Positions 1-43,330 of a stretch of DNA of 64,000 bases are shown here, piece by piece (within the stretch, counting starts at the first letter, position 1; each line of letters begins with the position of its first letter). This DNA is from Eledone cirrhosa (Eukaryota). The stretch is taken from contig OZ024744.1 of NCBI GenBank assembly GCA_964016885.1, positions 33,604,001 through 33,668,000 of the forward strand, written 5' to 3'. The position numbers were made by a program, and so were the translations under genes. Under the pieces are notes generated by a model. It was not told where the DNA came from, searched no databases, and was given only the letters and a program-made list of their open reading frames with translations.

Positions 1-2787
1 ATCCTCAAAGCAACAGCAAATACGGTGAGGAACCTACTTGGTATAAAAGCGAGAGGAAACAACAGACAAGAAAGAGCAGAGCCTTGGTGGAAGAAACGAC
101 TGAGTGGTCAAATCAGGGAAATGAGAAATTATATTGGAAAGCTTGAGTCCCTACTGAATGGGACACTAAAAAACATAGACACTAAAAATAGACTGGAAAT
201 AAAGTACAAAATTAGGAGGAAAAATCTAAATATTATCATAGAGGAACTGAAGCAACGCATTGTAGCAAAGAGTGCAAAAATCAGGCGATACGAGAACAGA
301 GTCAGTCAGTATAGACAGAACCGCATGTTGGACAACAACCAGAAGATGCTGTTTGGACAGCTTGAAGGGAAAGAAAGAGGCAACGACTTGATCCTGAGGC
401 GGGACAAACTAAAACATTCTGGAGAGGAATATGGGAGCAGGATGTTAAACATAATGACCAGGCAGTGTGGATTGAGACAATACAGAAGGAGATTAGTGAA
501 TAGGCATACCAACAAACTGATTTGAGTATCACAGTTGAAACTCTTAAGGGGCAGGCCAAAAAACTAACCAACTGGAAATCACCAGGCCCAGATGGTGTGC
601 AGGGGTATTGGATTAAAAATATAACATCCCTCCACCCGAAACTGACAACCATGTTCAATGACTGATTGATGTCAGGTGAGGTACCAGAGTGGTTGACAAA
701 AGGTACCACAGTTCTGATAATGAAAGACCGAATCAAGGGTAATGATGTTACCAACTATAGACCTATCACATGTCTGTCCGCAATGTGGAAACTGTTGACA
801 AGCATTATGTCTGAGGAAATCTACCATCACCTCCACACAAACAACTTGTTACCGGAAGAACAGAAAGGATGCCGAAAGAAGTCACGTGGTACAAAGGACC
901 AGTTACTTATTGATAAGATGGTAATGAGGAATTGCAAGAGGAGACACACTGGTCTTGCCATGGGATGGATAGACTACAAAAAGGCATTTGACATGGTGCC
1001 TCATTCTTGGATCACCAAAAGCCTGGAGATCTTCAAGGTGGCAGATAACATCAGACAGTTGTTGGGCAAAAGTATGAAGTCCTGGGAAACAGAGTTAACA
1101 TCAACTGGAGAATCCTTGGGAAGCGTGAAGATCAAGAGAGGTATCTTCCAGGGAGATAGTCTGTCCCCTCTGTTGTTTGTCCTTGCCCTGATGCCCCTGA
1201 CCAGTGTACTGCGAAAAGTGAGAGCAGGATACAGGTTGGGAAAGGGAGGGCTTACCATCAATCACCTCCTCTTCATGGACGATCTTAAGCTCTTCGGGAA
1301 GAGTGAGAAGGAGTTGGATGTGCTTGTTGACACTGTCCGTATTTTCAACAATGATATATGTATGCAATTTGGTATTAGTAAGTGTGGAGTCATTGTGATG
1401 AAGAGGGGTAAGTTGAGCAGAAGTAACGGAATCCAGGTACCAACAGGTGAGATGATAAAGGAAATTGACTCTGAAGAAGGATACAAGTATTTGGGCGTTC
1501 TGGAGGCTGATGACATCAAGAACAAAAAAATGAATGAATTGATAAGAACCGAATATATTCGGAGAGTAAGGAGCGTATTAAAGTCACATCTGAACAGTAG
1601 GAATGCCATAAGTGCAGTAAATTCCCGAGCTGTGTCTATTATTAGGTACAGTGCGGGAATTCTGAGATGGAATGTTGCTGAACAAAAAGAAATGGATAGG
1701 AAGACTAGGAAGCTATTGACTATCTACAACATGTTCCACAAGAGGAGTGATGTCGATAGACTCTACTTAAGGAGATCTGAAAGTGGAAGAGGTCTTATCA
1801 GCATAGAGGACTGTGTTCAGATGGAGAAAAACAACCTACACAAATACGTGACTGATAGTAAGGAGCCAATGCTCAGAACTCTCCTGAAGGAGGGGACAAT
1901 AGGCCAGGGGATGTCCAAGGAGGAAATAACATCAAGGAGGAAGAGCAGCCTTAAGGGAAAATCCCTTCATAGTACCTTTTTTGAGAAAACTGAATTTAGA
2001 GATCCACAGACATGGAACTGGTTGAAAAGAGGAGACCTTAAAAAGGCTACAGAAGGAATGTTAATGGCTGCACAGGAGCAGGCCCTCAAAACGAAGTGGT
2101 TGAAACACCACATTTACAAGGAGGAGGCTAGCCCACTGTGCAGGATCTGTGGACAGAGAGAGGAGACTGTGGCTCACATTGTATCCGAGTGTAAACACCT
2201 AGCCCAGACTCAGTATAAGGGCTGGAGACATGATGTGATGGGCAGGGTGATCCACTGGCACCTATGCAAAGTAAACAATTTACCACATTTTGAGAAATGG
2301 TATGAGCATAGGCCAGAGTCGGTGATAGAAAACGATCAGGTAAAGGTGCTGTGGGATTTTAGGATACAGACGGACAAGAAACTTGACACAATAGACCTGA
2401 CCTGGTGGTTGTGGACAAAGAAAAAAGATCGTGCCTGATTGTGGATGTGGCCTGCCCATTCGACACGAGAGTGCAAGAGAAGGAGAGGGAGAAAATTAAC
2501 CGATACCAGGACTTAAAGTGGGAGGTAAAAAGGATTTGGAACTGCCATGAATTCAAAGTGGTCCCGATTGTCATAGGCGCACTAGGGACTATCTCAAAAA
2601 GTTTCCAGGGATGGTTAAAGAAAATTGGCCCCTTAACGCTTTTTGGAACGCTTCAAAAGGCATGCTTGCTGGGAACAGCAAGAACCCTCCGATACGTCCT
2701 GAATATCTGAGGCTGCAGGTAGTGGCTTGATATTCATTCCAACGGACTTTCCAGTTAACTAACATCAATGACTGAGACTCGAAGAGT
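1..2787 (+). mobile_element. R4/Dong-type non-LTR retrotransposon (RT + CCHC + restriction-like endonuclease), frameshifted, 5' part outside window
   Basis: ORFs 25-525, 666-2438 and 2405-2710 join by frameshifts. RT motifs [23 protein letters not shown]; zinc knuckle [14 protein letters not shown]; RHD; RLE segment IVDVACP..EKINRYQDL; ends in (TAA)n at about 2787. Confidence 0.93.
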
Positions 2788-2817: not shown

Positions 2818-5800
2818 GAATTCTTTATTAACCACCACAAGGGTTTACATAAAGTAGACATTAAGGACAGTACAGGACAATACAGGGCGGTACAAATGGG
2901 CATTTCTGCGTGTAAAAAAAACAAGAATCAGAGGATGTAATAATAGAACAATGAAAAAAAATTCCCAAATAGGGGGGAGACTTCCGAGGGACATTGGTGG
3001 AGAAAGCCCATTAAAAAGCCACAGTGACCCTGACCACCAAGGCAAGTGCCCTCTCCCAGTTTTCCACCTTTAATTTAGAGACACATACTCAGAGAAGGCC
3101 CATTCACTCGAGCCATACTTGCTTCTCTCACCCATCTTTCAACAAAATGCTGGGAAGAGAGCACTTCCCTCTCTACCCTGATTTTCCTTTTCAAATGAAA
3201 TTTGAAAAAGTCAATCAGGGCATCACCGAAGAGGTAAGTGCTCGTCTTCAGCCCTTTCAAACGTGTCCACCATACTATCTCTTTCGCCATGGCCACCAGA
3301 CAGATAAAAACTGCCTGCCCTTCCAGGCTAAAGGAAGAGGGCGGGGCAATCCTCACGATGGACTCAGATGATAGCCGGATCCGTCCTACACGCGACAGCA
3401 GGTCTTCGACATAAACCCACAAGTCAGCAAATTTAGGACACTGGACGAGTGCGTGCAGGACGGTTTCGTCGCCCTGCGCGCATCTCGGACATGCCCGGCT
3501 GACGGCACCTCCATGCCTGTAGAGTTTATCCCGAACTGGCAAGGCTCCTCGGTAGCACTGCCAGGCCAGAGATTTCTGGAAGTTGTCCATAGGCCCCAGC
3601 CCGAAAGTTCTTTCGAAGAGATTGGCTAGTTGATTTTCGTCGACGCCTAGAGTTTCCCCAAGTACGTCGTCGCTCTTCCCCTCCACTAATCCTCTATAGA
3701 ACGCCGAGGTGGAGTTTCCACCGATCACATTGCCCGATTGGTCGAGGGCTGTGAGCGCCTGAAGACATTCCAGTCTCCAAGCGCTCCCTCTCGGTCTTCG
3801 CTTGACCCAGGACTGCAGCTCCGTCAAGGAGACGAGCTGGGGAAAGACGTGACTAGCAAACGGCGACCACACCTGATCACCGTCGAGGAAGAGGTGGAGA
3901 TGTGGTAGCCTGAGCGCGTGTCTGCGCATCATCAACCACGGCACGCCCAACCCTCCACGTAGCGGGTGTTGACTGCAGATGGACCGCCGGAGCATCGGAG
4001 CGCGTCCCTTCCACAAAAAGCGAAAGAGCAAACGCTCCAGCGCAGTCAGGCGGGGCTTAGGACAAGGTACGACTGTCAGGCGGTAGCAGATGACGGACGC
4101 GATGTACGCGTTAGCCACCTCCGCTCAACCTTTCAGCGATAGCTTCCTCTCCGCCCATTTCTGGGTGAGAGAAGCCACCCTGCTCACCTCGTCCCAGTTT
4201 TTGTCCGTCTGGAGATCCGGACCGAACCAGACCCCTAACAATTTAACCGGTCCGTCCGTCCAGCGCCTGACTACGCTGTTGGACGGCATGGCCCTGCCTC
4301 TCCAGGTGCCGAGCTGCAGGCCCACTGACTTTTCCTGGTTGATCATTGCTCCTGTCACCGCTTCGTATTCTCTTAGTGTAGTGCCGATCGCCTTGATGTG
4401 TTTGGCATTCGACACCACTACGGTGACATCGTCCGCATATGCTGACACGGATCTTCCGCATCTTAGTTCGCGCGGGACTCCCCACAACGTCTCCAGTTTG
4501 TGCATTAATGGCTCGAGAGTCAATACGTACAAGAGGGACGAGAGGAGACATCATTGGCGGACCGAGCGCATGATGTTGAATGGTTCCGAAAGGTAACCGT
4601 TAACTCTAACCACAGAGCAGATGTCGCTGTGTATGGCAGTGATCCAGGCTCTGGAGACGGGCCAAAGCCAGCCGCCTTCAGGACTGCCGCTAGGTAACGA
4701 TGGTCGACCCTATCGAAAGCTTTCGACTGATTTAAATTGATCAAGGACCCACCCGTGCCAGGTTCCCTAGCTACACTCTCTACGATGTATCGAATTGGTT
4801 TAGGTTGTCGTGGATGGATCTGTCGGAAATGGCGCATGTCTGCGCCTCTCCCACCAGACCACCAACGACAAGCGCCAATCTCTTTGCTAGCACCTTGGCC
4901 AAAATGTTGAACTCTGTGTTTATCAGAGTTATGGGCCTGAGATTATCTATGTTATCCCCCTTGTTCGGATCCTTTCTCAGCAGCGCCACAGCTCCTCGGC
5001 TCACAGAACTGGGAATTCTCCCGTTCTGTTGCCAGTTGCAGTAGACGTCCGCCAAGAGGCCTCCGAACAAGTCTGGCATTTGTACGTAAAGTTCATAGGG
5101 CAGACCATCCAAACCAGGCAATTTACCCCTTGTGCAGCCAGTCATTGCCTAACGTACTTCAGCGGCTGTTATCGGCTTTTCGCAACACTCCGCCTCAGTG
5201 GCCGAGAGCCGCGGAAGTCCGTCGAGGTAGACACTAAAGTCCATCCCTTGATTCGGCCCGCCGCTGCCCCCGAACAGCTGGGCGAAGTGTCGCTGGAAAG
5301 CTTCACACATTTGCCCGGGATCGAGTAGCATGCGCCCGTCGTGGTCGACCAAAGACCGGATCGTGGCTTTGTTGCCACGACGCGCCTCCGCCAATCGGGC
5401 CCATTTAACGGCTTTCGTCCCCTCGTGTCTGCGAGCACGCACCCTAGCTCTGACAACGCAGTCTTCGTGCTTTGCATTGAAGAATTGGTCAAGAGCCAAT
5501 TTCGCCGCAAGTACGTCGGTCGCGATGCCTTTGCTAAGCGCCTCGTCTAATTTTCTAACTAATTCTCCCTCTGCTCTATTTTTCTCTGTTGCTAAAGCCT
5601 TACTAAACCTAATGGACTCTATTCTAATCGCTCTTTTCAGAGCAAACCACCACTTGTTGTTGACGATGGCCCCCGTCAAAGCCCGCTTACTAGTTCGCTA
5701 ATCCGGTCTCTGTAGGCCTTGCGCGCTGGTAAGGACGCGTTTAGCTTCCAGTAGCCGGGTCCTCGTCTATGAAGCCTATCTAAGTCAAGCACACAGATCA

Positions 5801-8302: not shown

Positions 8303-9352
8303 AATAATAATAATAATAATGATTTCTTTATTGGCCACAAGGGCTGACATCAAGAAAAACATTACAGACGGCACAGGACGGTACGATGTGGGTTTTGTGC
8401 GTATAAATATTTTTATTATTTATATAAGAAAAGAAAAAAAAGATATCGAAACATATATATATATAAACGATAAAAATGAAAATTGAAACAATGAAAAATT
8501 CCCCAATAGGGGGGAATCCTCCGAGGGTTACTCGTGGCGAAAACCACACAAAAGACCACGGCCACCCTGACCACCAGGGCAAGCGCCTTCTCTCAATGTT
8601 TCCATCTCTCAAACTACAAACGTATATTCAGAGCGGTCCCGTTCACTCGGACCATTCTCGCTACATTCACCCACCTTTCAACAAACTTGCTAGAAGGCAG
8701 CACTTGCCTCTCCACCCTGATTTTCCTCTTCAAGTGAAACTTGAAAAAGTTAATTAGGGATTCGCTGAAGAGGAAAGTGTCTGTCTTTAACTCTTTCAAC
8801 CTTGTCCACCACACAATCTCTTTCGCCATGGCCACCAGGCAGATGAAAACCGCCTGCCCTTCCTCCTCGAAGGAAGCCGGCGAGACCATCTGCACAATGG
8901 ACTCAGTCGATAACCGGATCAGTCCTACACGCGACAGCAACTGTTCGACATAGCTCCACAAGTCAGCAATGCTCGGACACTGAATGAGTGCGTGCACGAT
9001 GGTTTCGTCGCTTTGCGCGCATCTCGGACAGGCTCGGCTGACGGCACTTCCGTGCCTGTAGAGCTTATCTCGAACCGGCAGCGCTCCCCGGTAGCACTTC
9101 CAGGCCAGGGACTTTTGGAAGTTATCCATAGGCCCTGGGCTGAAAGTTCTCCGGAAGAGAGCAAACAGTTGATCTTCTTCGACGCCCAGGATCTCTCCGA
9201 GAACGTCGTCGCTCTTCCCCTCCACTAGTCCTCTATAGAACGCCGAGGTGGATGTTCCACCGATACTAGTGCCCCGCTGGCAGAGAGCAGTGAGCGCCTG
9301 GAGACATTCCAGTTTCCAAGCGCTATGCCTCGGTCTTTTTCTGACCCAACAC
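8303..9352 (-). mobile_element. 5'-truncated second Tx1 LINE (related family), head-to-tail with the first
   Basis: ORF 8614-9225 is homologous to the C-terminal half of 3075-4118; 3' end CCCTTGTGGCCAATAAAGAAATC(ATT)n abuts the 5' end of the first copy. Confidence 0.92.
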
Positions 9353-10360: not shown

Positions 10361-10845
10361 ATGGTGGCTGCCAACTCGTTTTCGAGTACGGCCACTACTT
10401 TATATCCATGTAGGAGAACCCCTACCGATGCGCTGAACGAGTGTGACTTTTTAATCCAGCCAGCGACTTGAAAACTCTGGTACAAACACTACACTTGTGA
10501 CAATTATTGACACATAGTGCTGGTCCCATGGTACCATGTGACGACAAGCGCAGAGAGATCTCCAGATATAAAGCAATGCCTGTGCCGTGAAGCTTTTATA
10601 GTGAGCAAAGGCACTGCACAAAGCCAGTCCCACTCTCTTAACCAAGATGATATTTACCAAAAAGAAGAACAAGTCAACATCATTGGATATCATCAGGGTT
10701 GCAGGTGTTATATCAGAGTTTTCCTTCTCCTAGAATTCTGCCTTGACAAAGGCTAAGGGTCATCTCTCCCGGTGATTTTGGATGGCCACAGTCGTTAGCG
10801 ACTAAACGGGCAACCCCACCAAGGTTTCTTGGTGAGGAGAGTGAC
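10361..10845 (-). mobile_element. RTE-derived bipartite non-autonomous element, family A, with inverted 5' segment
   Basis: Highly similar to 32450-33059; 10790-10845 matches the 5' part of that copy in opposite orientation; (CATA)n on both sides. Confidence 0.8.
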
Positions 10846-13446: not shown

Positions 13447-14142
13447 GTGTCACGACAAAAATCACCCAGTCCGCACTGTAATGTGGCTATGTAGGTGTCA
13501 CAACAAAAATCACCCAGTCCGCACTGTAATGTGGCTATGTAGGTGTCACAACAAAAATCACCCAGTCCGCACTGTAATGTGGCTATGTAGGTGTCACAAC
13601 AAAAATCACCCAGTCCGCACTGTAATGTGGCTATGTAGGTGTCACAACAAAAATCACCCAGTCCGCACTGTAATGTGGCTATGTAGGTGTCACAACAAAA
13701 ATCACCCAGTCCGCACTGTAATGTGGCTATGTAGGTGTCACAACACAAATCACCCAGTCCGCACTGTAATGTGGCTATGTAGGTGTCACAACAAAAATAA
13801 CCCAGTCCGCACTGTAATGTGGCTATGTAGGTGTCACAACAAAAATCACCCAGTCCGCACTGTAATGTGGCTATGTAGGTGTCACAACAAAAATAACCCA
13901 GTCCGCACTGTAATGTGGCTATGTAGGTGTCACAACAAAAATAACCCAGTCCGCACTGTAATGTGGCTATGTAGGTGTCACAACAAAAATCACCCAGTCC
14001 GCACTGTAATGTGGCTATGTAGGTGTCACAACAAAAATCACCCAGTCCGCACTGTAATGTGGCTATGTAGGTGTCACAACAAAAATCACCCAGTCCGCAC
14101 TGTAATGTGGCTATGTAGGTGTCACAACAAAAAGCACCCAGC
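13447..14142. repeat. 48-bp minisatellite, about 14.5 near-identical copies
   Basis: Unit gtgtcacaacaaaaatcacccagtccgcactgtaatgtggctatgtag, no spacers. Confidence 0.97.
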
Positions 14143-15010: not shown

Positions 15011-15046
<36 letters not shown>

Positions 15047-15259
15047 CGTTTCTGAATTTGTTTAGCAAGATTCTTTATCTGAAATCGTGTGTTGAAACCG
15101 ATATTGTTATACTTTGGGAGGGTCATGTTGCCAATAAGAAACACACGCACCAGTTGCTTTCACTTCAATTTAATTTAATATATATTTATAAATTTACAAA
15201 TTTATAAATTTCTGGTTGGTTGGTTGGTTCCACAACCAGATAGTTGTTTATATATATAT

Positions 15260-15304
15260 AGTCATAGTTCTTTCGTCACACACTCTGTGACCTCTTCAGT
15301 GACT
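15260..15304 (-). ncRNA. Minimal type-I hammerhead ribozyme in pLTR
   Basis: AGTCA-CTGAAGA-G-GTCACA gagtg TGTGAC-GAAA-gaac-TA-TGACT. Confidence 0.8.
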
Positions 15305-15601
15305 GGGGATTTCTTTCTTCGTTTCTGTGTCTTTCCTTTCTTCTATCCTACGCCATTTTGTTTGTGTGTGGGTTGCGTGCTCAGTTTGCGCATGCGCCAC
15401 ATCCGGGTGTCTGTGTGTGTTTGTGTTCATTTTTCTATTTTTCTATTTATATTTGTTTGTTTATTTATTTATTTATTGTTGGTTGGTTGTTTGTTCTATG
15501 TGTGTGTGTGTTTTCATTTTGTCTTGTGTGTGTTTTCATTTTGTGTGTGTTTTCAATTGTAAGTTGTTTGTTCTATGTGTGTGTGTGTTTTCATTTTGTC
15601 C

Positions 15602-18270
15602 TTAATTGTAAGTTGTGATGTTGCTGTTCCACTCATATTTTCTATTTAATTTTGGTTTTAATTCTTTTATGCTTACTGCCTCTGTAATTTGCCTAAACAT
15701 TGCGTCTTTCTTGTGTGTGGATTCTATTTTTATTTCTATGCTCTCTAATTTACCCCTGTGTTCTATCTTAGCATGTTGGTAGAGCACAGATGATTCTTTA
15801 CTATCTTGGAGGTCTCGCCAGTGTTCATTTATTCGTTCCCCTATACTACGAGCTGTCTCACCTATGTACACTATATTTTTGTTTCTACATTGTCCTTCAG
15901 TACATCTTATGCTATATACTACATTTCTAGTTTTACAGTTAGTATGGGGGCTTATTTTACAGGTTATACATTTCTTATCTATACATGAGGGTCTTTGGAA
16001 CGGGTATGTCTTGCTAATAAGTGTTTTTACGGAGGTACCAGGTCTTTCTACTATCTTAATATTGAGATTATGTTTCTTTAGGGCCCTTCTAAATTTGTAG
16101 GCTAGTTCGCCTCTAGGGGTTGTATTGATGAACATTACACTCTGGTATTTATTGCTATCATACCATGAGTTTATTCTATTGGCCTTGTTCTTAGTTCTTT
16201 CTATTCTATTCCAAAATTTGCTCCTATACAAGGGGCAGGTCCCATTTATGTCATTATTTACCATTTTTTCCCATTTGGTTCTGGCTCCTTTATACACTCT
16301 GATTCTATCTCTCTGATTGTAGCCAGAGAACTGCATACGGTGGATGAAGTGTTGTATGTGTCTCTCTAGTTCTTCGGGGTTGCACATGCGGGACACATTT
16401 CTCATCACCCGTATCAAATCCGCAATCAGTATGTTGATTTTGGTATGGTCCGAAATGGCCGAGTTTCGGTGGATCAGATGTTTGGAAGTCATGGGTTTGG
16501 CATAATGGGAATGGAGGATTTGTTTTTGGTTGTTAATAGTATCTAACCAGAGCTCTGTGTCTAGTACAGGTAATCGATGGTTGGGGTGTCTACTTGGGTA
16601 GTCTATAGTAACTCTAATGCTCTGGTGGATGGAGTTTGCTATTTGCTGGATGCTTTCCATTGTGTTTTTCTCTGGTTCCTGACTGTTCTTTAGTGGGGGT
16701 GTCTTAACTACGATGTTTATATCATCTACGTAGCGGGAGTACATTATCAGGGTTAAGCTGTCTTCTAATTGTTCTTTAAGTTTTTGTTTAAGTCTACTGT
16801 CCCACCATACCATGAACAAGTTAGCTATGTCGCCTGCAATGCTAACACCAATGGCTGCTCCTTCCTCTTGGGCATATGTTTTACCATTAAATTTGAACAT
16901 ATGTTCCTTAAGGGTTAATTTTATGCTGGCCCCTACCGCATGTGCAATCATTTTCTTCAGTTCATCGTGGTTTTCGGGTGTCCGTATGGCTCTGGTCCAC
17001 CCGTTCCATCTATCTGTGTGGGTTTTCTTGGCCATTGAGGTAATGGTAGGTGGTCTGCCTCTTGCTGGTCTTGTAGGGCACAGGTTGCTAAGGTCATAAG
17101 TGTCTAGGTAACTATTACTATGGGTAAGCTTAAGTAGAAGTCCCAGCTCACTGGTATCAATCCCACGGAACTCAACCTTGCTCTCGCTGATCATTTCGAC
17201 GCATTTCTCCACAGCAAAATCCACGTCAATAGATGGATACAGGGACACAACATCCATACTGCCTATTATGCAGTTTGTTAGGTCCCCAGATCGGTTACCC
17301 GCGCCGATTCTGCTGAGGAGGTCCTCCGTGCTGTCACACACATCTGGGGACATCTCAATGATGGGGCGTATGATCAGGGAGAGGAAGTAGGACAGTCTGT
17401 AGTTACTAGCAATGTTAGCCCCACAGACTGGCCGTGTTGGTGGTCCCGCGACAGGGTCCCAGCCCGTTTTATGGTCTTTTCGAAGCCCATACAACGCCGG
17501 CACGTCATTGTTCCAGGCCTGGAAGTTGTTGGCAGTCCTTTTGTTGGGCTGCATTATATTTGTCCACATCACCATATGGGCATTGAGGGTTTTTTCTCTA
17601 TCCTCATGCTCCTGTGGTGTTACCTCTCTTGTGTTAGTGATGTGGGGTTGCATTGCCTGGATGTAGTTTGGCAGGCTGTCAACCGACATTCTGCCAGACT
17701 TGTCTGTTGGAAAGCATGCTATCTCTCCATTACGCGAGCGCTGCATGAGCTTACGCAAGCCATTTGCAGATTCTTCTCCCAGTTGCTGGGCCTCTATTCT
17801 ATTATGCTTCTTGCTATACTGTTCTATAATATTTCTAAGTTCGGATTTAGCTATACTAAATTGTGCTTCTGTTTGTTCATCGACCTGCGACGGCAACTGC
17901 GTGCGTTTGTTAAATGGCAAAGTCGTGGCGTGGACTCGTCGTAGGTCGAATGATTTATCGGAGGGGTTATAAAACGGAGAGTTCCAGGCTGCTGCTTTAT
18001 GTGTACTAGTGCTATTGTTAGTTGTGTTGTTTCTATTTCCACCAACAGCAGCAGCCTCAGCTTCATGGTTGTTTCTATGTCTCTCATAATTACTCCTGTC
18101 TCTTTCCACTGGCTCAATGTTGTTATCTACCCTATTTTGTGTGTCTGTGTGTTCGTCTTGGTTATTCTCTTTGTCCTTAGTCTCCCTACTCCTTTTAATC
18201 CTATTACTTTCTCTTATTTCTCTGATTTCTGTGCTACTGTCATTACTTGTTTTCTGTGTCTGTGTGTTTG
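15602..18270 (-). CDS. PLE polyprotein: reverse transcriptase + Cys linker + C-terminal GIY-YIG endonuclease (frame open up to the inversion breakpoint)
   Basis: TDKSG, RKDHK, RPVC, SMDVVSLYPSI, GAAIG, RYVDD, LPVLD, CIDKKCITC, VVYSIRC..YIGET..ERINEH; 835 aa without stop, and the frame stays open upstream of the GTG at 18109. Confidence 0.93.
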
Positions 18271-19722
18271 TTAAGATTGATAATGTACTCCCGCTACGTA
18301 GATGATATAAACATCGTAGTTAAGACACCCCCACTAAAGAACAGTCAGGAACCAGAGAAAAACACAATGGAAAGCATCCAGCAAATAGCAAACTCCATCC
18401 ACCAGAGCATTAGAGTTACTATAGACTACCCAAGTAGACACCCCAACCATCGATTACCTGTACTAGACACAGAGCTCTGGTTAGATACTATTAACAACCA
18501 AAAACAAATCCTCCATTCCCATTATGCCAAACCCATGACTTCCAAACATCTGATCCACCGAAACTCGGCCATTTCGGACCATACCAAAATCAACATACTG
18601 ATTGCGGATTTGATACGGGTGATGAGAAATGTGTCCCGCATGTGCAACCCCGAAGAACTAGAGAGACACATACAACACTTCATCCACCGTATGCAGTTCT
18701 CTGGCTACAATCAGAGAGATAGAATCAGAGTGTATAAAGGAGCCAGAACCAAATGGGAAAAAATGGTAAATAATGACATAAATGGGACCTGCCCCTTGTA
18801 TAGGAGCAAATTTTGGAATAGAATAGAAAGAACTAAGAACAAGGCCAATAGAATAAACTCATGGTATGATAGCAATAAATACCAGAGTGTAATGTTCATC
18901 AATACAACCCCTAGAGGCGAACTAGCCTACAAATTTAGAAGGGCCCTAAAGAAACATAATCTCAATATTAAGATAGTAGAAAGACCTGGTACCTCCGTAA
19001 AAACACTTATTAGCAAGACATACCCGTTCCAAAGACCCTCATGTATAGATAAGAAATGTATAACCTGTAAAATAAGCCCCCATACTAACTGTAAAACTAG
19101 AAATGTAGTATATAGCATAAGATGTACTGAAGGACAATGTAGAAACAAAAATATAGTGTACATAGGTGAGACAGCTCGTAGTATAGGGGAACGAATAAAT
19201 GAACACTGGCGAGACCTCCAAGATAGTAAAGAATCATCTGTGCTCTACCAACATGCTAAGATAGAACACAGGGGTAAATTAGAGAGCATAGAAATAAAAA
19301 TAGAATCCACACACAAGAAAGACGCAATGTTTAGGCAAATTACAGAGGCAGTAAGCATAAAAGAATTAAAACCAAAATTAAATAGAAAATATGAGTGGAA
19401 CAGCAACATCACAACTTACAATTAAGGACAAAATGAAAACACACACACACATAGAACAAACAACTTACAATTGAAAACACACACAAAATGAAAACACACA
19501 CAAGACAAAATGAAAACACACACACACATAGAACAAACAACCAACCAACAATAAATAAATAAATAAACAAACAAATATAAATAGAAAAATAGAAAAATGA
19601 ACACAAACACACACAGACACCCGGATGTGGCGCATGCGCAAACTGAGCACGCAACCCACACACAAACAAAATGGCGTAGGATAGAAGAAAGGAAAGGCAC
19701 AGAAACGAAGAAAGAAATCCCC

Positions 19723-19767
19723 AGTCACTGAAGAGGTCACAGAGTGTGTGACGAAAGAACTATGACT
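19723..19767 (+). ncRNA. Minimal type-I hammerhead ribozyme in pLTR (further copies 38772-38814 -, 39359-39401 +, 41394-41438 -, 43121-43165 +)
   Basis: Stem I AGTCA/TGACT, core CTGAAGA, stem II GTCACA/TGTGAC, GAAA, very short stem III, cleavage after TA. Confidence 0.8.
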
Positions 19768-19918
19768 ATATATATATAAACAACTATCTGGTTGTGGAAC
19801 CAACCAACCAACCAGAAATTTATAAATTTGTAAATTTATAAATATATATTAAATTAAATTGAAGTGAAAGCAACTGGTGCGTGTGTTTCTTATTGGCAAC
19901 ATGACCCTCCCAAAGTAT

Positions 19919-19949
<31 letters not shown>

Positions 19950-20064: not shown

Positions 20065-20477
20065 ATGGTGGCTGCCAACTCGTTTTCGAGTACGGCCACT
20101 ACTTTATATCCATGTAGGAGAACCCCTACCGATGCGCTGAACGAGTGTGACTTTTTAGTCCAGCCAGCCACTTGAAAACTCTGGTACAAACACTACACTT
20201 GTGACAATTATTGACACATAGTGCTGGGCCCATTGTACCCTGTGATGACAAGTGCAGAGAGATCTCCAGATATAAAGCAATGCCTGTGCCTTGAAGCTTT
20301 TATAGTGAGCAAAGGCACTGCACAAAGCCAGTCCCACTCTCTTAACCAAGATGATATTTACCAAAACGAAGAACAAGTCAACATCATTGGATACCATCAG
20401 AGTTGCAGGTGTTATATCAGAGTTTTCCTTCTCCTAGAATTCTGCCTTGACAAAGGCTAAGGGGTCATCTCTCCCGG
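20065..20477 (-). mobile_element. 5'-truncated family A copy in (CATA)n
   Basis: Matches 32450-32862. Confidence 0.85.
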
Positions 20478-20653: not shown

Positions 20654-20793
20654 AATGAGTGAGAGTAATGAACTTAATATATGTGCGCATGAAAATATAT
20701 CTATATATAACTTTATATGCATGTGTGTATACATATATTTATATATATATATACACACAAATATATTCATATATATATATATATGAATATATT

Positions 20794-20827
<34 letters not shown>

Positions 20828-21348
20828 AATCAGGAAAGAAGGTTTACATGGTTTGCTATACAAAAAAGTTTTTAATCACATAGCTTACATATGTTTCACT
20901 GAACTGGTATGTCTAGAGATCGCTATCCGCCTAATTTTGCGTCACTCGATCGCCAATACAGAATTATAACCAGTCAGATCTTCGGAGCATGCGAGAATGA
21001 AGAAAATACACAGGCAAGAAAATAAAAGAAAATATGGAGTAGTTATGGCATTCAATTAGAACAATAACAACAACAATTATTACAACAATGCTATCAATAA
21101 ACTATTTAAGGAGACCCTCACATTACTTAGGTGGGGGGTATATAATGTATCTAATATTACGGCGTGAAAACCAGCTGTCATAAGGCAAAAAGTATCGTAG
21201 TGTGTATCAATTTTAAATTATAAAGATAAGCTAGTTTTTACAGTCTTTCTCTTCATCTTCAACAGTATACATGAGTGGGACCACTGTCAAAGCTCAATAG
21301 TTGTAGAGTTAATACAGAGGTTAACGAATTAATATACGCATATATCTA

Positions 21349-21436
<88 letters not shown>

Positions 21437-22112
21437 AATATATACACATATATGTGTACATAGACACATACATACACATCAATATACACTCGTACAAAAA
21501 TATACATACATGCAAAGAGAAAAGCGTGCTAATTGTAGTTATGGCAAAAAGAAGGTAAAGTAACATTGTAGTAGTGAAATGAGAAAAACTAGGATCTAGG
21601 ATCAAATGATTGCAGCAGCTGAGAAGGAGTAAGATTGTTGGTAGATGAGGTATTTACAGACAATTGTGTGGTATAGACTTGTGAAGGAAATAGTATACTT
21701 AATGAATATATTTCTGTGGGTAGTAGGTATCCTAATTTAAAGCTATGTTATGTTGGTTCGATTCACGGAGGTTTGAATCTTATGAATTTAGTGGCTATTC
21801 TATGTCTGCAGAAGATAGATCTTTCTAACTTATTATTAAGTAGCCTTTTAACATTTCTAAGGATATACAATAGCTCAAGATCACACAGCCCGCAATAGGA
21901 CATCCCTGTACTATAGGTTTTAGCAGCCGACAACTTCGACCAGTTGATTGTGTAGCTAGCGTTGCTGTCCTTCAATTCCCATATTTTTCTGGCGAGGGTG
22001 GTGGAACCCATAAGTGCTCGATTTTTCATTGAGTGCCTGTGCACCAACCATCTTTTCTTAAAAGAACCCGCGGTGGATCCTATGTAATTCCAGGTGGAGT
22101 TACCCGAGATGA
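20828..22112 (-). mobile_element. 3' fragment of a second PLE family (GIY-YIG C-terminus + pLTR), probably Hydra-clade
   Basis: WNYIGST..FKKR..HRHS..INWSKL..CGLCDLE..LLNNKLER..CRHR (21763-22110); 3' end joins (TA)n; same pLTR at 27958-29778. Confidence 0.85.
20879..20991 (-). ncRNA. Hammerhead variant with CCGAAGA core and long stem II (copies 28008-28120 -, 29613-29725 +)
   Basis: catgct-CCGAAGA-tCTGACTGGT...ACCAGtTCAGt-GAAA-CATATG-TA-agctatg. Confidence 0.65.
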
Positions 22113-22170
22113 CTGGTTACTTTACTCTGAGTAACCCAGCTATTCTGTATGTAAGGCCGGTAGATAGGTA

Positions 22171-22215
22171 AATATTACTGATGAGTTGTAACAACAACGA
22201 AACTAGTTCAATATT
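22171..22215 (+). ncRNA. Minimal type-I hammerhead ribozyme
   Basis: AATATTa-CTGATGA-GTTGT aaca ACAAC-GAAA-CTAG-TT-cAATATT. Confidence 0.88.
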
Positions 22216-22637
22216 CCTTGACTGGCTTTCTGGAGAATAGAGGAAAGGTGTTTCCTCGAAAACCAGTATGACTCTAAAAACCGGTTTGTCTGTGTGTTTA
22301 CATACAGAATAGCTGGGTTACTCACAGTAAAGTAACCAGTGAAAGACTTGTTACATCTACATATGTATACGTGTGTGTATTCATATACACACTAGTATTT
22401 CAGTATGCATATGTAGATGTACATTTTTAACTTAATTGTTTAAGCGTCAGTCATACAAAAGTGAGTTACAAACGAAACGAATTTTAATTTCGTTTCGTTA
22501 TTTGTTTTTATCGTCTCCGCTGAACCGGTGCGTACTCACACTCTATGCAAATTAGTCTGCCCACTACTAATTTTCATAGAAAAAGCATATAACGATATGT
22601 GCTTTTACGATTCTCCAGAAAGGCCGGTAGATAGGTA

Positions 22638-22682
22638 AATATTGCTGATGAGTTGTAACAACAACGAAACTAGTTCAATATT
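22638..22682 (+). ncRNA. Minimal type-I hammerhead ribozyme
   Basis: AATATTG-CTGATGA-GTTGT aaca ACAAC-GAAA-CTAG-TT-CAATATT; perfect 7-bp stem I, palindromic stem III. Confidence 0.92.
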
Positions 22683-23016
22683 CCTTGTCTGGCTTTCTGG
22701 AGAATAGAGGAAAGGTGTTTCCTCGAAAACCAGTATGACTCTAAAAACCGGTTTGTCTGTGTGTTTACATACAGAATAGCTGGGTTACTCACAGTAAAGT
22801 AACCAGTGAAAGACTTGTTACATCTACATATGTATACGTGTGTGTATTCATATACACACTAGTATTTCAGTATGCATATGTAGATGTACATTTTTAACTT
22901 AATTGTTTAAGCGTCAGTCATACAAAAGTGAGTTACAAACGAAACGAAATTTAATTTCGTTTCGTTATTTGTTTTTATATATATATGTATATATATATAT
23001 ATATATGTATATGTAT

Positions 23017-23069
<53 letters not shown>

Positions 23070-23649
23070 TATATACATACACACACACACACATACACAC
23101 ATACATGTATATGTATGTGTGTATGTGTGTGTATGGACACACAAACAGATATATTCATATATAAACATTTACATATATGTGTAAATGTTTGCATGTATGT
23201 TTAAATAAATAAATAAATAAGTAAAAATAAAATGATACCCACCCTCTTCCCTCCAAATGCAACAAGAACAACAAAAAACTTAAATAAAATATATAAAGAA
23301 ATAATTAAAGAAAGAAGGGACGAAAAATGAAAAGAGAAACAAGTGGAGACGATAGTAATAAAAGGATTTTGTAACAGTATTTCATAATAGAAAACTATTT
23401 TAAGAGTGTTTTCTTCTTATAGGAGGATATCCGCTTCCCGGGGCGTTGTCGCCCCATCCCTGGGTACAAATAATGAATAAAGAATAACAATAACAATATT
23501 AATATTGACGCTTGCAGAGGCAACAATAACAAAAACAACAACCACACAGCAGCAACAATAATAATGTATATATAAATATGAATAAAAAATAAAAAATTTG
23601 TGGGCCTTGTTTAATATGTCATTTTCTGTTTTTGTTTACTTTTGTCATA

Positions 23650-23681: not shown

Positions 23682-24560
23682 CTTCTTCTTCTTCTTCTTC
23701 TTCTTCTTCTTCTTCATTCCTGCAGATCTTCCAGCAGATCCTGTCAGAAGCAACCGTCTCCAACTGTTCCGCCTGGGTTGCCAAGCGTGACCAGCCAACC
23801 GTCTTGCTCAAGCTCTACCCCTGGGTCTCCTGCCAGTTGGTTTTGACCATAAAATATGTCCAGCAATTCTTTCCTGAGACATTCTAACCACATGTCCACA
23901 GTATCTGAGCTGTGATCTCTCAATTCAGAGATTCTTTCCTGAGACATTCTAACCACATGTCCACAGTGTCAGAGCTGTGATCTCTCAATTCAGAGATTCT
24001 TTCCTGAGACATTCTAACCACATGTCCACAGTATCTGAGCTGTGATCTCTCAATTCAGAGATTCTTTCCTGAGACATTCTAACCACATGTCCACAGTATC
24101 TGAGCTGTGATCTCTCAATTCAGAGATTCTTTCCTGAGACATTCTAACCACATGTCCACAGTATCTGAGCTGTGATCTCTCAATTCAGAGATTCTTTCCT
24201 GAGACATTCTAACCACATGTCCACAGTATCTGAGCTGTGATCTCTCAATTCAGAGATTCTATCCTGAGACATTCTAACCACATGTCCACAGTATCTGAGC
24301 TGTGATCTCTCAATTCAGAGATTCTTTCCTGAGACATTCTAACCACATGTCCACAGTATCAGAGCTGTGATCTCTCAATTCAGAGAAGTAGCAGGTCTAC
24401 CTGGAGTGACTCTCTCATCTCAGAGCTATGCACTTTATCGAGTAACGTTACTCCAAAGACCTTTCGGAGGAACCACATTTCAGCCGCTTGTATACATATT
24501 CTTTCGGTCATTACCCCTTATTCATGACCATAGGTAAGGGATGACACGAATACCAAATTC
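23652..24560 (-). mobile_element. 3' fragment of RTE-clade LINE (Expander/Rex3-like) with (GAA)n tail
   Basis: Minus-strand reading QAAEMWFLRKVFGVTLLDKVHSSEMRE..GHVVRMSQER..GRRPRGR; (TTC)n at 23652-23716. Confidence 0.8.
23866..24385. repeat. 65-bp minisatellite, 8 copies, inside the RTE fragment
   Basis: Unit attctttcctgagacattctaaccacatgtccacagtatctgagctgtgatctctcaattcagag. Confidence 0.97.
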
Positions 24561-26884: not shown

Positions 26885-27006
26885 TTTTAATATAGATGAG
26901 ATTCTACAGGACTAGTACTGTTTCATTCTTTAGAAATCATCAGGAATCTGATGATTTCTAAAGAATGAAACAGTTCTAGTCCTGTAGAATCTCATCTATA
27001 TTAAAA
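26885..27006. repeat. Fold-back palindrome centred beside a hammerhead-like core
   Basis: Arms of about 59 bp around gaat; the right arm begins CTGATGA-tttctaaagaat-GAAA; stem I not evident. Confidence 0.85.
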
Positions 27007-27918: not shown

Positions 27919-27957
<39 letters not shown>

Positions 27958-27959
<2 letters not shown>

Positions 27960-28479
27960 CAGGAAAGAAGGTTTACATGGTTTGCTATACAAAAAAGTTT
28001 TTAATCACATAGCTTACATTTGTTTCACTGAACTGGTATGTCGAGAGATCGCTATCCGCCTAATTTTGCGTCACTCGATCGCCAATACAGAATTATAACC
28101 AGTCAGATCTTCGGAGCATGCGAGAATGAAGAAAATACACAGGCAAGAAAAGAAAAGAAAATATGGAGTAGTTATGGCATTCAATTAGAACAATAACAAC
28201 AACAATTATTACAACAATGCTATCAATAAACTATTTAAGGAGACCCTGACATTACTTAGGTGGGGGGTATATAATGTATCTAATATTACGGCGTGAAAAC
28301 CAGCTGTCATAAGGCAAAAAGTATCGTAGTGTGTATCAATTTTAAATTATAAAGATAAGCTAGTTTTTACAGTCTTTCTCTTCATCTTCAACAGTATACA
28401 TGAGTGGGACCACTGTCAAAGCTCAATAGTTGTAGAGTTAATACAGAGGTTAACGAATTAATATACGCATATATCTACG

Positions 28480-28513
<34 letters not shown>

Positions 28514-29173
28514 AATATATATACACATATATGTGTACATAGACACATACATACACATCAATATACACCCGTACAAAAATATACATACATGCAAAGAGAA
28601 AAGCGTGCTAATTGTAATATGGCAAAAAGAAGGTAAAGTAATATTGTAGTAGTGAAATGAGAAAAACTAGGATCTAGGATCAAATGATTGCAGCAGCTGA
28701 GAAGGAGTAAGATTGTTGGTAGATGAGGTATTTACAGACAATTGTGTGGTATAGACTTGTGAAGGAAATAGTATACTTAATGAATATATTTCTGTGGGTA
28801 GTAGGTATCCTAATTTAAAGCTATGTTATGTTGGTTCGATTCACGGAGGTTTGAATCTTATGAATTTAGTGGCTATTCTATGTCTGCAGAAGATAGATCT
28901 TTCTAACTTATTATTAAGTAGCCTTTTAACAAGTCTATACCACACAATTGTCTGTAAATACCTCATCTACCAACAATCTTACTCCTTCTCAGCTGCTGCA
29001 ATCATTTGATCCTAGATCCTAGTTTTTCTCATTTCACTACTACAATGTTACTTTACCTTCTTTTTGCCATAACTACAATTAGCACGCTTTTCTCTTTGCA
29101 TGTATGTATATTGTACGAGTGTATATTGATGTGTATGTATGTGTCTATGTACACATATATGTGTATATATATT

Positions 29174-29264
<91 letters not shown>

Positions 29265-29946
29265 GCGTATATTAATTCGTTAACCTCTGTATTAACTCTA
29301 CAACTATTGAGCTTTGACAGTGGTCCCACTCATGTATACTGTTGAAGATGAAGAGAAAGACTGTAAAAACTAGCTTATCTTTATAATTTAAAATTGATAC
29401 ACACTACGATACTTTTTGCCTTATGACAGCTGATTTTCACGCCGTAACATTAGATACATTATATACCCCCCACCTAAGTAATGTCAGGGTCTCCTTAAAT
29501 AGTTTATTGATAGCATTGTTGTAATAATTGTTGTTGTTATTGTTCTAATTGAATGCCATAACTACTCCATATTTTCTTTTCTTTTCTTGCCTGTGTATTC
29601 TCTTCATTCTCGCATGCTCCGAAGATCTGACTGGTTATAATTCTGTATTGGCGATCGAGTGACGCAAAATTAGGCGGATAGCGATCTCTAGACATACCAG
29701 TTCAGTGAAACAAATGTAAGCTATGTGATTAAAAACTTTTTTGTATAGCAAACCATGTAAACCTTCTTTCCTGATTTATTATTACTCCAAGTGTTTACAA
29801 CATAGGAATTACAGCATACCCGCAGCATCACTATGAAAACGCCTTGTTGAGTCAAACCAAGCCAAGCGTTAATATCATCCACTACCTGGAATACCATAAC
29901 TGGACTTCACCTAAGTGGACTGCATTTAACTATTATTTGTTAATCC

Positions 29947-29948
<2 letters not shown>
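27958..29948. mobile_element. Inverted pair of pLTRs of the Hydra-like PLE family, in (TA)n
   Basis: 27958-28930 matches 20828-21851; 28931-29778 is the inverted copy and extends about 170 bp further to (TA)n. Confidence 0.9.
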
Positions 29949-29978
<30 letters not shown>

Positions 29979-31786: not shown

Positions 31787-33059
31787 ATGGTGGCTGCCAA
31801 CTCGTTTTCGAGTACGGCCACTACTTTATATCCATGTAGGAGAACCCCTACCGATGCGCTGAACGAGTGTGACTTTTTAGTCCAGCCAGCGACTTGAAAA
31901 CTCTGGTACAAACATTACACTTGTGACAATTATTGACACATAGTGCTGGGCCCATGGTACCATGTGACGACAAGTGCAGAGAGATCTCCAGATATAAGGC
32001 AATGTCTGTGCCGTGAAGCTTTTATAGTGAGCAAAGGCACTGCACAAAGCCAGTCCCACTCTCTTAACCAAGATGATATTTACCAAAAAGAAGAACAAGT
32101 CAACATCATTGGATACCATCAGAGTTGCAGGTGTTATATAAGAGTTTTCCTTCTCCTAGAATTCTGCCTTGACAAAGGCTAAGGGGTCATCACTCCCGGT
32201 GATTTTGGATGGCCATTGACTCTTAAGAGCTCCTTTGACATTTGACAGGTTTTGTTTTTAGTCCTGCAGGATGTCCAAAGTCCCCCTCCTCACTAAGAAA
32301 CCTTGGTGAGGTTGCCATTTAGTCGTCAACGACCCGACCATGAGACAGGTTGTACTGTGATACATGTTACCAGTAGCACCAACTGGTGACCTGACATACA
32401 TATATACATACATACATATAAATCAAAATATACATACATACACACATACATAGTGGCTGCCAACTCGTTTTCGAGTACAGCCACTACTTTATATCCATGT
32501 AGGAGAACCCCTACCGATGCGCTGAACGAGTGTGACTTTTTAGTCCAGCCAGCGACTTGAAAACTCTGGTACAAACACTACACTTGTGACAATTATTGAC
32601 ACATAGTGCTGGGCCCATGGTACCATGTGACGACAAGTGCAGAGAGATCTCCAGATATAAAGCAATGCCTGTGCCGTGAAGCTTTTGTAGTGAGAAAAGG
32701 CTCTGCACAAAGCCAGTCCCACTCTCTTAACCAAGATGATATTAGCCAAAAAGAAGAACAAGTCAACATCATTGGATACCATCAGGGTTGCAGGTGTTAT
32801 ATCAGAGTTTTCCTTCTCCTAGAATTCTGCCTTGACAAAGGCTAAGGGGTCATCACTCCCGGTGATTTTGGATGGCCAGTGACTCTTAAGAGCTCCTTTG
32901 CCCTTTGACAGGTTTTGTTTTTAGTCCTGCAGGATGTCCAAAGTCCCCTTCCTCACCAAGAAACCTTGGTGAGGTTGCCAGTTTAGTCGCCAACGACCCG
33001 ACCATGAGACAGGTTGTACTGTGATACACGTTTCCAGTAGCACCAACTGGTGACCTGAC
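31787..33059 (-). mobile_element. Two tandem full-length family A copies (31787-32395 and 32450-33059)
   Basis: About 610 bp each, same 5' and 3' ends, separated by (CATA)-like repeats; contain RTE-like 5' UTR motif ctaggagaaggaaaactct and a C2H2 remnant [22 protein letters not shown]. Confidence 0.85.
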
Positions 33060-33099
33060 ATATATACATACATACATACATGCATACATACATACGTAC

Positions 33100-38495: not shown

Positions 38496-38555
38496 TCATA
38501 TGTATATATATATATATATATATATACATATATATACATATATATATATAAATAT

Positions 38556-39617
38556 ACACTTCGTTGCTGAATTTGTTTAGCAAGATTTCTTATCTGAAAA
38601 CGCGTGTTGAAACAGATATTGTTATACTTTGGGAGGGTCATGTTGCCAATAAAATCACATGCACCTGTTGGTTTTCACTTCAATTTATTAGAAATTAAAT
38701 TTATAAACTTAAGAATTTATAAATTTCCGGTTGGTTGGTTGGTTCCACAGCCAGACGATTGTTCATATATTGTCAAAGTTCTTTCGTCACACATTATGTG
38801 ACCTCTTCAGTGACTGGGGATTCTTTTCTTTGTTTTTGTGCTTCTCTTTTGTTCTGTCCTACGCCATCTTGTTTTGTGTGCTTAGTTTGCGCATGTGTTA
38901 CATCCGGGTGTCTGTGTGTGTTTATATTTGTAAATGAACACTGGCGAGAGCTTCAAGATAGTAAAGAATCATCTGTACTCCACCAACATGCTAAAATAGA
39001 ACATAAGGTTAAATTAGAGAACATTGAAATAAAAATAGAATCTACACACAGAAAAGACGCAATGATTAGACCAATCACAGAGGCAATAAACATAAATGAA
39101 CTCCAACCAAAATTAAATAGAAAACATGAATGGAATAGCAACATCACAACTTACAATTAAGGACAAAATGAAAACGCACACATACATAGAACAAACAACC
39201 AACCAGTAACATGTAAATAAACAATAAGTAAACAAATATAAACACACACAGACACCCGGATATAACACATGCGCAAACTAAGCATACAACACACACAAAA
39301 ACAAGATGGCGTAGGACAGAACAAAAGAGAGGCATAAAAACAAAGAAAAGAATCCCCAGTCACTGAAGAGGTCACAGAATGTGAGACGAAAGAACTTTGA
39401 CAATATATGAACAATCGTCTGGTTGTGGAACCAACCAACAAACCGGAAATTTATAAATTCCTAAATTTATAAATTTAATTTATAATAAATTGAAGTGAAA
39501 GAAACTGGTGCGTGTGTTTCTTATTGGCAACATGACCCTCCCAAAGCATAACAATAACGGTTTCAACACACGTTTTCAGATAAAGAATCTTGTTAAACAA
39601 ATTCAGAATCGAAATAT
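38556..39617. mobile_element. Short inverted-pLTR insertion of a diverged subfamily of the 15-20 kb PLE
   Basis: pLTR(-) 38556-38930, GIY-YIG C-terminus 38931-39160 (+), pLTR(+) to 39617, (TA)n flanks. Confidence 0.9.
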
Positions 39618-40097
39618 ATATATATATATATAAATATAATAACTAGAAATTGATTAACATATATATAAACATGAATAATCACAGGAGATAATTTTTACAA
39701 GTGTGTAACCACACATAGCTAGGTAGGTGACTAAATAAAGTTGACCAGAACTTCAAAAATAGATACCTTATAATATGATTAATCTTCCCTGTATATATTC
39801 CATTAAAGAAATATATTTCACCAATTAATCGGATGGTAAACCACGGAAGTGGATACTTGGATTTTCAACAAGGAAGAAGTTCCAGCGATACGTGTTTACA
39901 CTTCAAGTTCAAATCAGCGACTGGCCAGGAACACGTGCTATATCTACTAGAAATACACACATCATACTAGTTATTATAAAATGCTCGGACCTACTCGTTA
40001 GAAACTTAGAGCTTATTTTGCGGGTGATATGGCGCATGTCTTTCTGGCATGACACCTATAATTTTGATTTATCTTAATTTTGGATATAGATATATAG

Positions 40098-40704: not shown

Positions 40705-43330
<2,626 letters not shown>

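Follow-up and report, generated by a model that had tools for sequence, protein, structure and literature searches.

A hammerhead retrozyme of Eledone cirrhosa with the two-ended insertion signature of Penelope-like elements, and its fusion to one of them between (TA)n tracts

Copies of a 467-nt hammerhead retrozyme in the genome of Eledone cirrhosa pair a short and a long fixed end, head-to-head within (TA)n tracts, as Penelope-like elements (PLEs) do, and a PLE-type reverse transcriptase (RT)/endonuclease is for this reason its likely mobiliser. This family-wide signature is the robust and lasting result, while the retrozyme/PLE chimera described below belongs to a wider background of mixed junctions. 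The mobilisation of animal retrozymes has so far been argued from shared ribozymes, co-occurrence and pLTR homology. The two fixed ends constitute a mechanistic fingerprint, which predicts starts of reverse transcription at unit positions 285-290 and at 359; as the predicted sites are exact, the question of the mobiliser can be directly tested in vitro with the intact PLE proteins of the genome. A word of caution applies to single retrozyme/PLE chimeras, which cannot assign partners.

The host genome comprises 3.0 Gb and is rich in microsatellites. PLE-A to PLE-H, rz2 and rz3 are family names internal to this analysis, and the window denotes the whole stretch of 64,000 nt that was analysed.

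Layout of the fusion locus

The fusion of the retrozyme with a piece of PLE-A is present in the assembly and is bounded by two (TA)n tracts, as the sequence-only reading that preceded this analysis had described; the left tract ends at 20827 and the right one starts at 22976. Between them lie a 1.29-kb 3' arm of PLE-A, a 43-nt inverted retrozyme piece and 1.77 retrozyme units (467-nt unit). The features are, with positions in the window:

20695..20827, no strand: left (TA)-rich tract, which the PLE-A arm targeted; it directly borders the PLE-A 3' end, an arrangement with 308 exact matches genome-wide
20828..22113, minus strand: PLE-A arm, a 5'-truncated Hydra-type PLE that ends at the short end of the family (X, no tail); 98-99% identical to 29 other copies over query 48-411
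20875..20995, minus strand: type I hammerhead variant of PLE-A, predicted by folding; core CCGAAGA at 20985-20979, long stem II, GAAA at ~20897; no Rfam match
21763..22113, minus strand: C-terminal 116 codons and stop of the GIY-YIG endonuclease (YIG, CxxC, CxH); 99% identical to residues 693-808 of the intact PLE-A frame; no Pfam match
22112..22154, minus strand: inverted 43-nt piece of the unit (positions 146-188), a likely fold-back patch judged by sequence match and the recurrence of such pieces; 2-nt overlaps GT and TT
22153..22619, plus strand: retrozyme unit copy 1, 467 nt, 36% GC, longest ATG frame 20 codons
22160..22231, plus strand: type I hammerhead of copy 1, with one stem I mismatch and a private change at 22177; Rfam HH9, 27.3 bits, E 5e-4, below the gathering score
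22620..22978, plus strand: second copy of the retrozyme, terminating at the long end of the family (Y, unit position 359); the junction of this end with TA has 1952 exact matches
22627..22698, plus strand: type I hammerhead of copy 2, with a palindromic stem III; Rfam HH9, 38.6 bits, E 1.2e-7, below the gathering score of 52
22904..22909, plus strand: position of the short end class of the unit (X, unit 285-290), unused in the studied insertion
22976..23079, no strand: right (TA)n tract

The minus-strand piece 22154-22112 corresponds to unit positions 146-188 with 42 of 43 bases identical (E 1e-14), in agreement with the earlier reading. It runs, also as described there, directly into PLE GIY-YIG coding sequence without a microsatellite at the junction, and the PLE-A reading frame from VISGNSTWNYIG is open down to the stop at 21765-21763. 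On the minus strand, the endonuclease codons are followed by a 3' UTR, which contains a (CA)n tract, and by the predicted hammerhead variant. The plus-strand tandem was found from 22153 onward, where it had been placed, as 22153-22619 plus 22620-22978, and its two copies show 3 differences in 359 nt. The bases CCAGT, proposed to be common to both partners, turned out to be shared only in their last two: the sequence is ...CACT-GT-CATCTC in each of the 29 other PLE copies and ...ACCA-GT-GAAAG in the unit, which leaves GT (22113-22112). The same 29 copies match from 22113 onward and diverge upstream, and the P of 'PVISG' at the junction comes from the unit. On its other side the 43-nt piece overlaps the tandem by the two bases TT (22153-22154).

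The locus is not a simple nested insertion, since the rest of the PLE is absent beyond 22978. The next PLE-A sequence, 5 kb off at 27954-29955, is a separate complete two-armed insertion with the short end on its left and the 176-nt tail on its right.

The retrozyme unit and the PLE-A family

By its sequence features the 467-nt repeat is a hammerhead retrozyme, which upholds the earlier identification of the unit. It forms arrays of many copies, each with a type I hammerhead whose core motifs are intact; it is non-coding, with 36% GC, and folds far more stably than its shuffled versions (z -11.5). The HH9 matches at 22160 and 22627 score below the gathering threshold, at which Rfam returned 0 matches in the 64-kb window. 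Coding sequence was found upstream of 0 of 463 unit hammerheads, and the long end joined to TA is present in at least 1952 exact copies genome-wide. Metazoan non-LTR retrozymes, as described in PMC7229834, are likewise tandem, non-coding, low in GC and strongly self-paired and carry a type I hammerhead; their units measure 150-450 nt, compared with 467 nt here.

An origin of the unit as a pseudo-LTR or relic of PLE-A was considered and rejected, as the two gave no blastn match and no informative profile match, and no homology of the unit to the other PLEs sampled was detected. The relatives that were detected are other non-coding hammerhead repeats, namely rz2 and, weakly, rz3, which also have two end classes at (TA)n. 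The homologous rz2 (468 nt, with a hammerhead) is fused to the unit twice. rz3 is a non-coding tandem repeat of ~312 nt with a hammerhead, and another non-coding tandem repeat measures ~617 nt; these three repeats were seen at L043, L415, L127, L349 and L032. A census of hammerhead motifs over the fetched loci gave at least 40 clusters.

PLE-A is, judged by its motifs and copy identity, a young Hydra-type PLE. Its copies are 98-99% identical over the searched region, and three fetched copies have intact frames of 806-808 codons, with a single ORF and the YIG segment at the C end. Inspection of frame P0001 gave the motifs RRVRWK (RWK) and KADKTS (DKG changed to DKT). The linker CNCHLPDRC (CxCX5C) and, near the C end, CGLC (CxxC) and CRH (CxH) were read by inspection, without a reference alignment, while CCHH is absent, with one Cys only between VY and YIG. 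These motifs agree with the assignment of the coding piece to the Hydra type made in the earlier reading. Pfam gave 0 families for PLE-A, so that the RT and endonuclease are assigned from the motifs, and the 77 homologues found (31-46% identity) bear no clade names. The full element has 3473 nt with a 176-nt tail, and its ends lie in (TA)n, with 308 and 396 exact end-plus-TA matches against 0 for the reversed control. The putative variant hammerhead core folds into stems I and II and has no match in Rfam.

Craig et al. (2021, PMC8557442) describe the Hydra clade with the same RWK, DKT, CxCX5C linker, lack of CCHH, CxxC and CxH, C-terminal endonuclease and (TA)n targets. PLE-A is larger (3.47 kb, compared with generally <3 kb in the clade), its tail is longer (176 nt, compared with 30-40 nt for the PLEs in a figure of that paper), and its predicted hammerhead differs from that of the clade by a C at core position 4 and by a long stem II. 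The predicted variant is found at 20875-20995 (minus strand) and 29610-29735 (plus strand), with the core CCGAAGA and ~75 nt inserted in stem II; the repeat fused at L134 has a core that resembles it.

Two fixed ends at (TA)n targets

Both the unit and PLE-A are inserted as head-to-head arms with their 3' ends facing (TA)n, and in both the ends fall into two classes. The short end of the unit lies at 285-290 (three sub-sites) and its long end at 359; in PLE-A the short end is the pLTR end, and the long end lies 176 nt further. In a non-random sample of score-ranked arrays and of position-ordered pattern matches mostly on C1-C4, with blocks that reach a locus end excluded, 133 complete unit insertions comprised 78 short+long, 1 long+long and 1 short+short (78/80 of those with two canonical ends), the remaining 53 being one-armed, truncated in an arm or joined to foreign sequence. 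The 160 complete PLE-A insertions comprised 89 short+long, 1 long+long and 2 short+short (89/92), although the sample also took PLE-A long ends chosen for having no exact partner and is biased against the pairing rule. With this comparison of the insertion-site signatures, which the sequence-only reading had called for, the PLE-like inverted layout that it noticed is borne out: head-to-head arms in (TA)n with a short and a long end. A common sequence motif at the short or the long ends of the unit and the PLE families was not evident by eye.

A PLE protein has been shown in vitro to extend both strands and to begin reverse transcription at two internal sites of the RNA, which bound the genomic tail (PMC11167929). 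As the in vitro starts bound the tail and the genomic ends are paired, the two ends of the unit are best interpreted as PLE-type RT start sites, a pair that the unit itself carries. That protein, of the Poseidon element PAc from Anolis (Frangieh et al. 2024, PMC11167929), is also similar to the system described here in its AT-rich targets and in starts that lie apart from the ribozyme cut. It belongs to an autonomous element of another clade and was studied in vitro, whereas here the starts are deduced from genomic ends and the RNA is non-coding.

PLEs have been proposed as a candidate mobiliser of metazoan non-LTR retrozymes (Cervera & de la Pena 2020, PMC7229834). Li, Clavereau & Pollet (2026, bioRxiv 10.64898/2026.07.22.740005) consider retrozymes to be non-autonomous PLE derivatives, on the basis of vertebrate co-occurrence and pLTR homology, and 24 of their 57 Xenopus families matched Repbase TEs. 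In contrast, the unit has no detected PLE homology, and its link to PLEs is supported by the insertion signature; a 'tail' is not mentioned in the accessible part of that preprint (10.64898/2026.07.22.740005). Similarly, the accessible text of PMC7229834 makes no mention of an inverted layout, whereas the unit forms head-to-head two-armed (TA)n insertions with two fixed 3' ends. We found no published two-end signature in a retrozyme and no published retrozyme/PLE fusions in the mostly non-subscription literature; the supplements of Li et al. may list chimeric or inverted loci.

Within same-family insertions, the two arms start at nearly the same position (≤15 nt apart) in 12 of 90 PLE-A and 6 of 53 unit cases, for example L141, L165, L169, L179, L243, L402 and L413, which suggests that some second arms may have been copied from the first.

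The 43-nt inverted piece

The 43-nt piece most likely arose when the end of the retrozyme arm folded back and copied part of itself. Among truncated inverted pieces of <150 nt, 7 of 8 in PLE-A begin between -21 and +85 nt from the 5' start of their own arm, in an element of 3473 nt, and 6 of 6 in the unit begin between -20 and +145. Full second PLE-A arms begin ≤50 nt from the start of the first arm in 16 of 90 cases. Binomial values of 8e-5 and 0.002 for the near starts are post hoc, with windows picked after viewing the data. The studied patch, 145 nt from the arm start, is the farthest of the 13 near cases, which counts against the fold-back reading. What follows beyond such short pieces varies between bare (TA)n (L219, L256), non-repeat DNA (L056, L157, L176, L292) and other repeats (L109, L043, L266). 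The pieces track the start of their own arm in both families, whatever lies on the far side, and a fold-back of the new cDNA would account for them without a second RNA.

Self-priming was inferred earlier for Penelope (PMC3846280), from palindromes at inverted junctions. The Adineta Penelope system (Arkhipova et al. 2013, PMC3846280) is also comparable in that a PLE acts in trans and joins are made through microhomology. Its cargo is framed by the PLE's own pLTRs, whereas here the cargo has its own ends.

Fusion partners of the retrozyme

The studied chimera does not name the mobilising PLE family: fusions of the unit with four other coding PLE families are present in the genome, whereas a second one with PLE-A was not found. 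The claim that the chimera identifies the Hydra-like family as the mobiliser is therefore not supported. The four families are PLE-B (L137), PLE-C (L109, L223), the Hydra-type PLE-D (L232) and PLE-H (L407); PLE-B and PLE-C we take to be Neptune- or Poseidon-like from their motifs. The further chimeras that the sequence-only reading wished to see counted were thus found for other PLE families but not for PLE-A, of which no second fusion with the unit occurs among 159 other PLE-A and 132 other unit insertions. For the unit in other PLE-A insertions, 0/159 corresponds to an upper 95% bound of ~1.9%. Other PLE families have also kept long open frames, of 905, 779 and 775 codons.

Fusions of the unit extend to hammerhead or TA-targeted repeats (L032, L037, L043, L057, L128, L134, L250, L415), to a SINE-like repeat (L046) and to non-repeat DNA (L056, L187, L418). 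Arms of PLE-A, likewise, are found joined to LINE pieces, to older PLEs interrupted by SINEs and to non-repeat DNA. As separate neighbours parted by TA, the unit and PLE-A were found at two PLE-A loci (L187, L355). On the shared stretches of C1 and C2, where the listed end positions were compared by eye, no unit end lies within 6 kb of a PLE-A end, and a genome search for chimeras with the whole insertion sequence matched only long unit arrays.

At L223 (G000:C1:69440900-69445600) an arm from the long end of a young PLE-C is followed by a hairpin patch and then by about three retrozyme units on the same strand; this locus is a better candidate than the studied one for a true PLE-to-retrozyme template switch. 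L407 (G000:C1:254726400-254731000) holds a retrozyme short arm and 249 nt of the RT of another Hydra-type PLE on the same strand, followed by an inverted 3' arm of that PLE.

Origin of the fusion

The explanation that we consider best, at about even confidence, is that a retrozyme arm was inserted beside a slightly older PLE-A copy and was joined to it with loss of the intervening DNA. An endonuclease would nick the (TA)n tract, and the RT would be primed at the long-end start site of the retrozyme and complete 1.77 rounds on a circular or multimeric RNA. The second retrozyme arm would not be made; the cDNA end would fold back via the 2-nt TT and copy 43 nt of itself, and the patched end would be joined through the GT microhomology to the adjoining PLE-A arm.

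Besides the studied locus, 7 of the 13 mixed fusions with a determined end class combine short with long ends, where the classes of rare families come from few copies and short and long may differ in function across families. The complementary cases are L109, L232, L134, L057, L128, L283 and, tentatively, L032, the non-complementary ones L137, L043, L223, L407, L167 and L193. As this proportion equals the expectation for random neighbours, most mixed fusions probably reflect joining to neighbouring DNA. Precursors for such joining exist, since the unit and PLE-A occur as TA-separated neighbours (L187, L355), and the arms of both are often joined to apparently pre-existing DNA, which also speaks for an insertion followed by a deletion. 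Against it count the pairing rule, which the studied locus obeys with a PLE-A short end and a unit long end, and the private changes, 4 in 1123 nt of the PLE-A arm and 3 in 826 nt of the unit, by which the two look equally young. It also counts against a deletion that neither a second PLE-A arm nor an inner (TA)n tract has left a trace at the locus, and that chance deletion fusions of the unit and PLE-A would, by a rough estimate, number ~0.1-0.5 per genome. Of 13 fused partners, 5 differ by no more than 2% from another copy, compared with 24 of 142 neighbours across a TA tract (p 0.07, by a measure that favours long segments); this is no more than suggestive of fused partners being younger than ordinary neighbours, which would likewise count against a deletion.

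A possible, if less probable, origin is co-integration, in which one PLE complex would nick both (TA)n strands and prime PLE-A RNA at its short-end site and retrozyme RNA at its long-end site, the cDNA ends being joined via the fold-back patch; the protein could be that of PLE-A or of another family. The complementary end classes and the equal private divergence of the two arms at the studied locus are consistent with this, as is a PLE protein that extends both strands and is a predicted dimer (PMC11167929). Patches are also found between the arms of same-family insertions, and six other unit fusions are complementary (L109, L232, L134, L057, L128 and, tentatively, L032). However, complementary ends are found in only 7/13 mixed fusions, compared with 167/172 same-family pairs, and the absence of the unit from the 159 other PLE-A insertions limits the frequency of such events to the bound given above. 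If mixed co-integration is real, each arm of a PLE insertion would be primed on an RNA molecule of its own, an unresolved step of PLE transposition. It is possible, though less probable than not, that animal retrozyme RNAs carry their own PLE-type pair of RT start sites and that one PLE complex can prime two different RNAs at the two nicks of one (TA)n target. The studied locus and several similar ones, with arms of PLE-A, -C, -D or another ribozyme repeat, would then be fossils of mixed complexes, and the retrozyme would be served by several PLE clades instead of a single partner.

The other version of co-integration is the one put forward from the sequence alone, namely that the RT moved from PLE-A RNA to retrozyme RNA for 43 nt, which would make PLE-A the mobilising partner. 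The piece does share its strand with the PLE arm and overlaps it by 2 nt, both families are young and have (TA)n as their target, and intact PLE-A frames exist (3 copies, 806-808 codons). Such pieces, however, recur beside the arm start of their own family in both the unit and PLE-A, the unit is fused to PLE-B, PLE-C, PLE-D and PLE-H and has no similarity to PLE-A, and long open frames are found in other PLE families too; we regard the switch as improbable. Taken together, the two versions of co-integration remain a substantial possibility, short of an even one.

Quite improbable, too, is that two insertions, each completed independently in the same (TA)n tract, were later fused by a microhomology-mediated deletion, with the 43 nt as the stump of the retrozyme's own short arm. 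Short arms beginning near 143-181 do exist (L241, L235), as do adjacent insertions (L355), and deletions of this kind have been described in PLEs (PMC3846280). Stumps would be expected to vary freely in length and position, whereas the pieces that recur measure 29-43 nt and lie near the arm start, and fusions are no commoner in the position-ordered, more diverged sample (4 among 70 loci) than in the young score-ranked arrays (10).

Least probable of all is an artificial join of two repeat copies by the assembler. Inverted repeats within microsatellites are difficult to assemble, and the lack of any spanning read or independent contig would speak for such a join. Against it, both outer ends are typical of their families, a patch plus a foreign arm is also seen at other loci (L056, L109, L043), and the right flank of the site, which is internal to a contig of 136 Mb, is unique. 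None of the sequencing runs listed contains half of the junction words, and no RNA run was among them. Contigs of four runs over 21520-22640 do not span the junction, and in them the normal PLE continues at 22113, which is neutral with respect to this allele; a second haplotype of the locus is not present in the assembly.

Other features of the window

Several other PLEs lie in the window. A two-armed PLE-B insertion at 15034-19926 has an open frame of 905 codons (18319-15605, minus strand) and hammerhead motifs at 15299 (minus strand) and 19728 (plus strand), and more PLE-B insertions are found at ~38550-39620 and 41170-43330. A fragment of another Hydra-type PLE, with 39% amino-acid identity to PLE-A, occupies 58670-59781 on the minus strand. 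Hammerhead-like motifs were seen at 26943-26948, 27376, 30395, 40776, 55033, 60735, 60824 and 61595.

Near-perfect tandem arrays are present at 23866-24386 (8 copies of 65 nt) and 13447-14141 (14.5 copies of 48 nt). A SINE-like repeat of ~620 nt lies beside (TACA)n at 10365-10788, 20069-20477 and 31791-33063, in the last case in tandem. Open frames resembling LINE RTs were found at 666-2435 (plus strand), 3078-4124, 8617-9351 and 56162-57682 (all minus strand) and 62183-64000, with a further PLE-like fragment at the end of the window.
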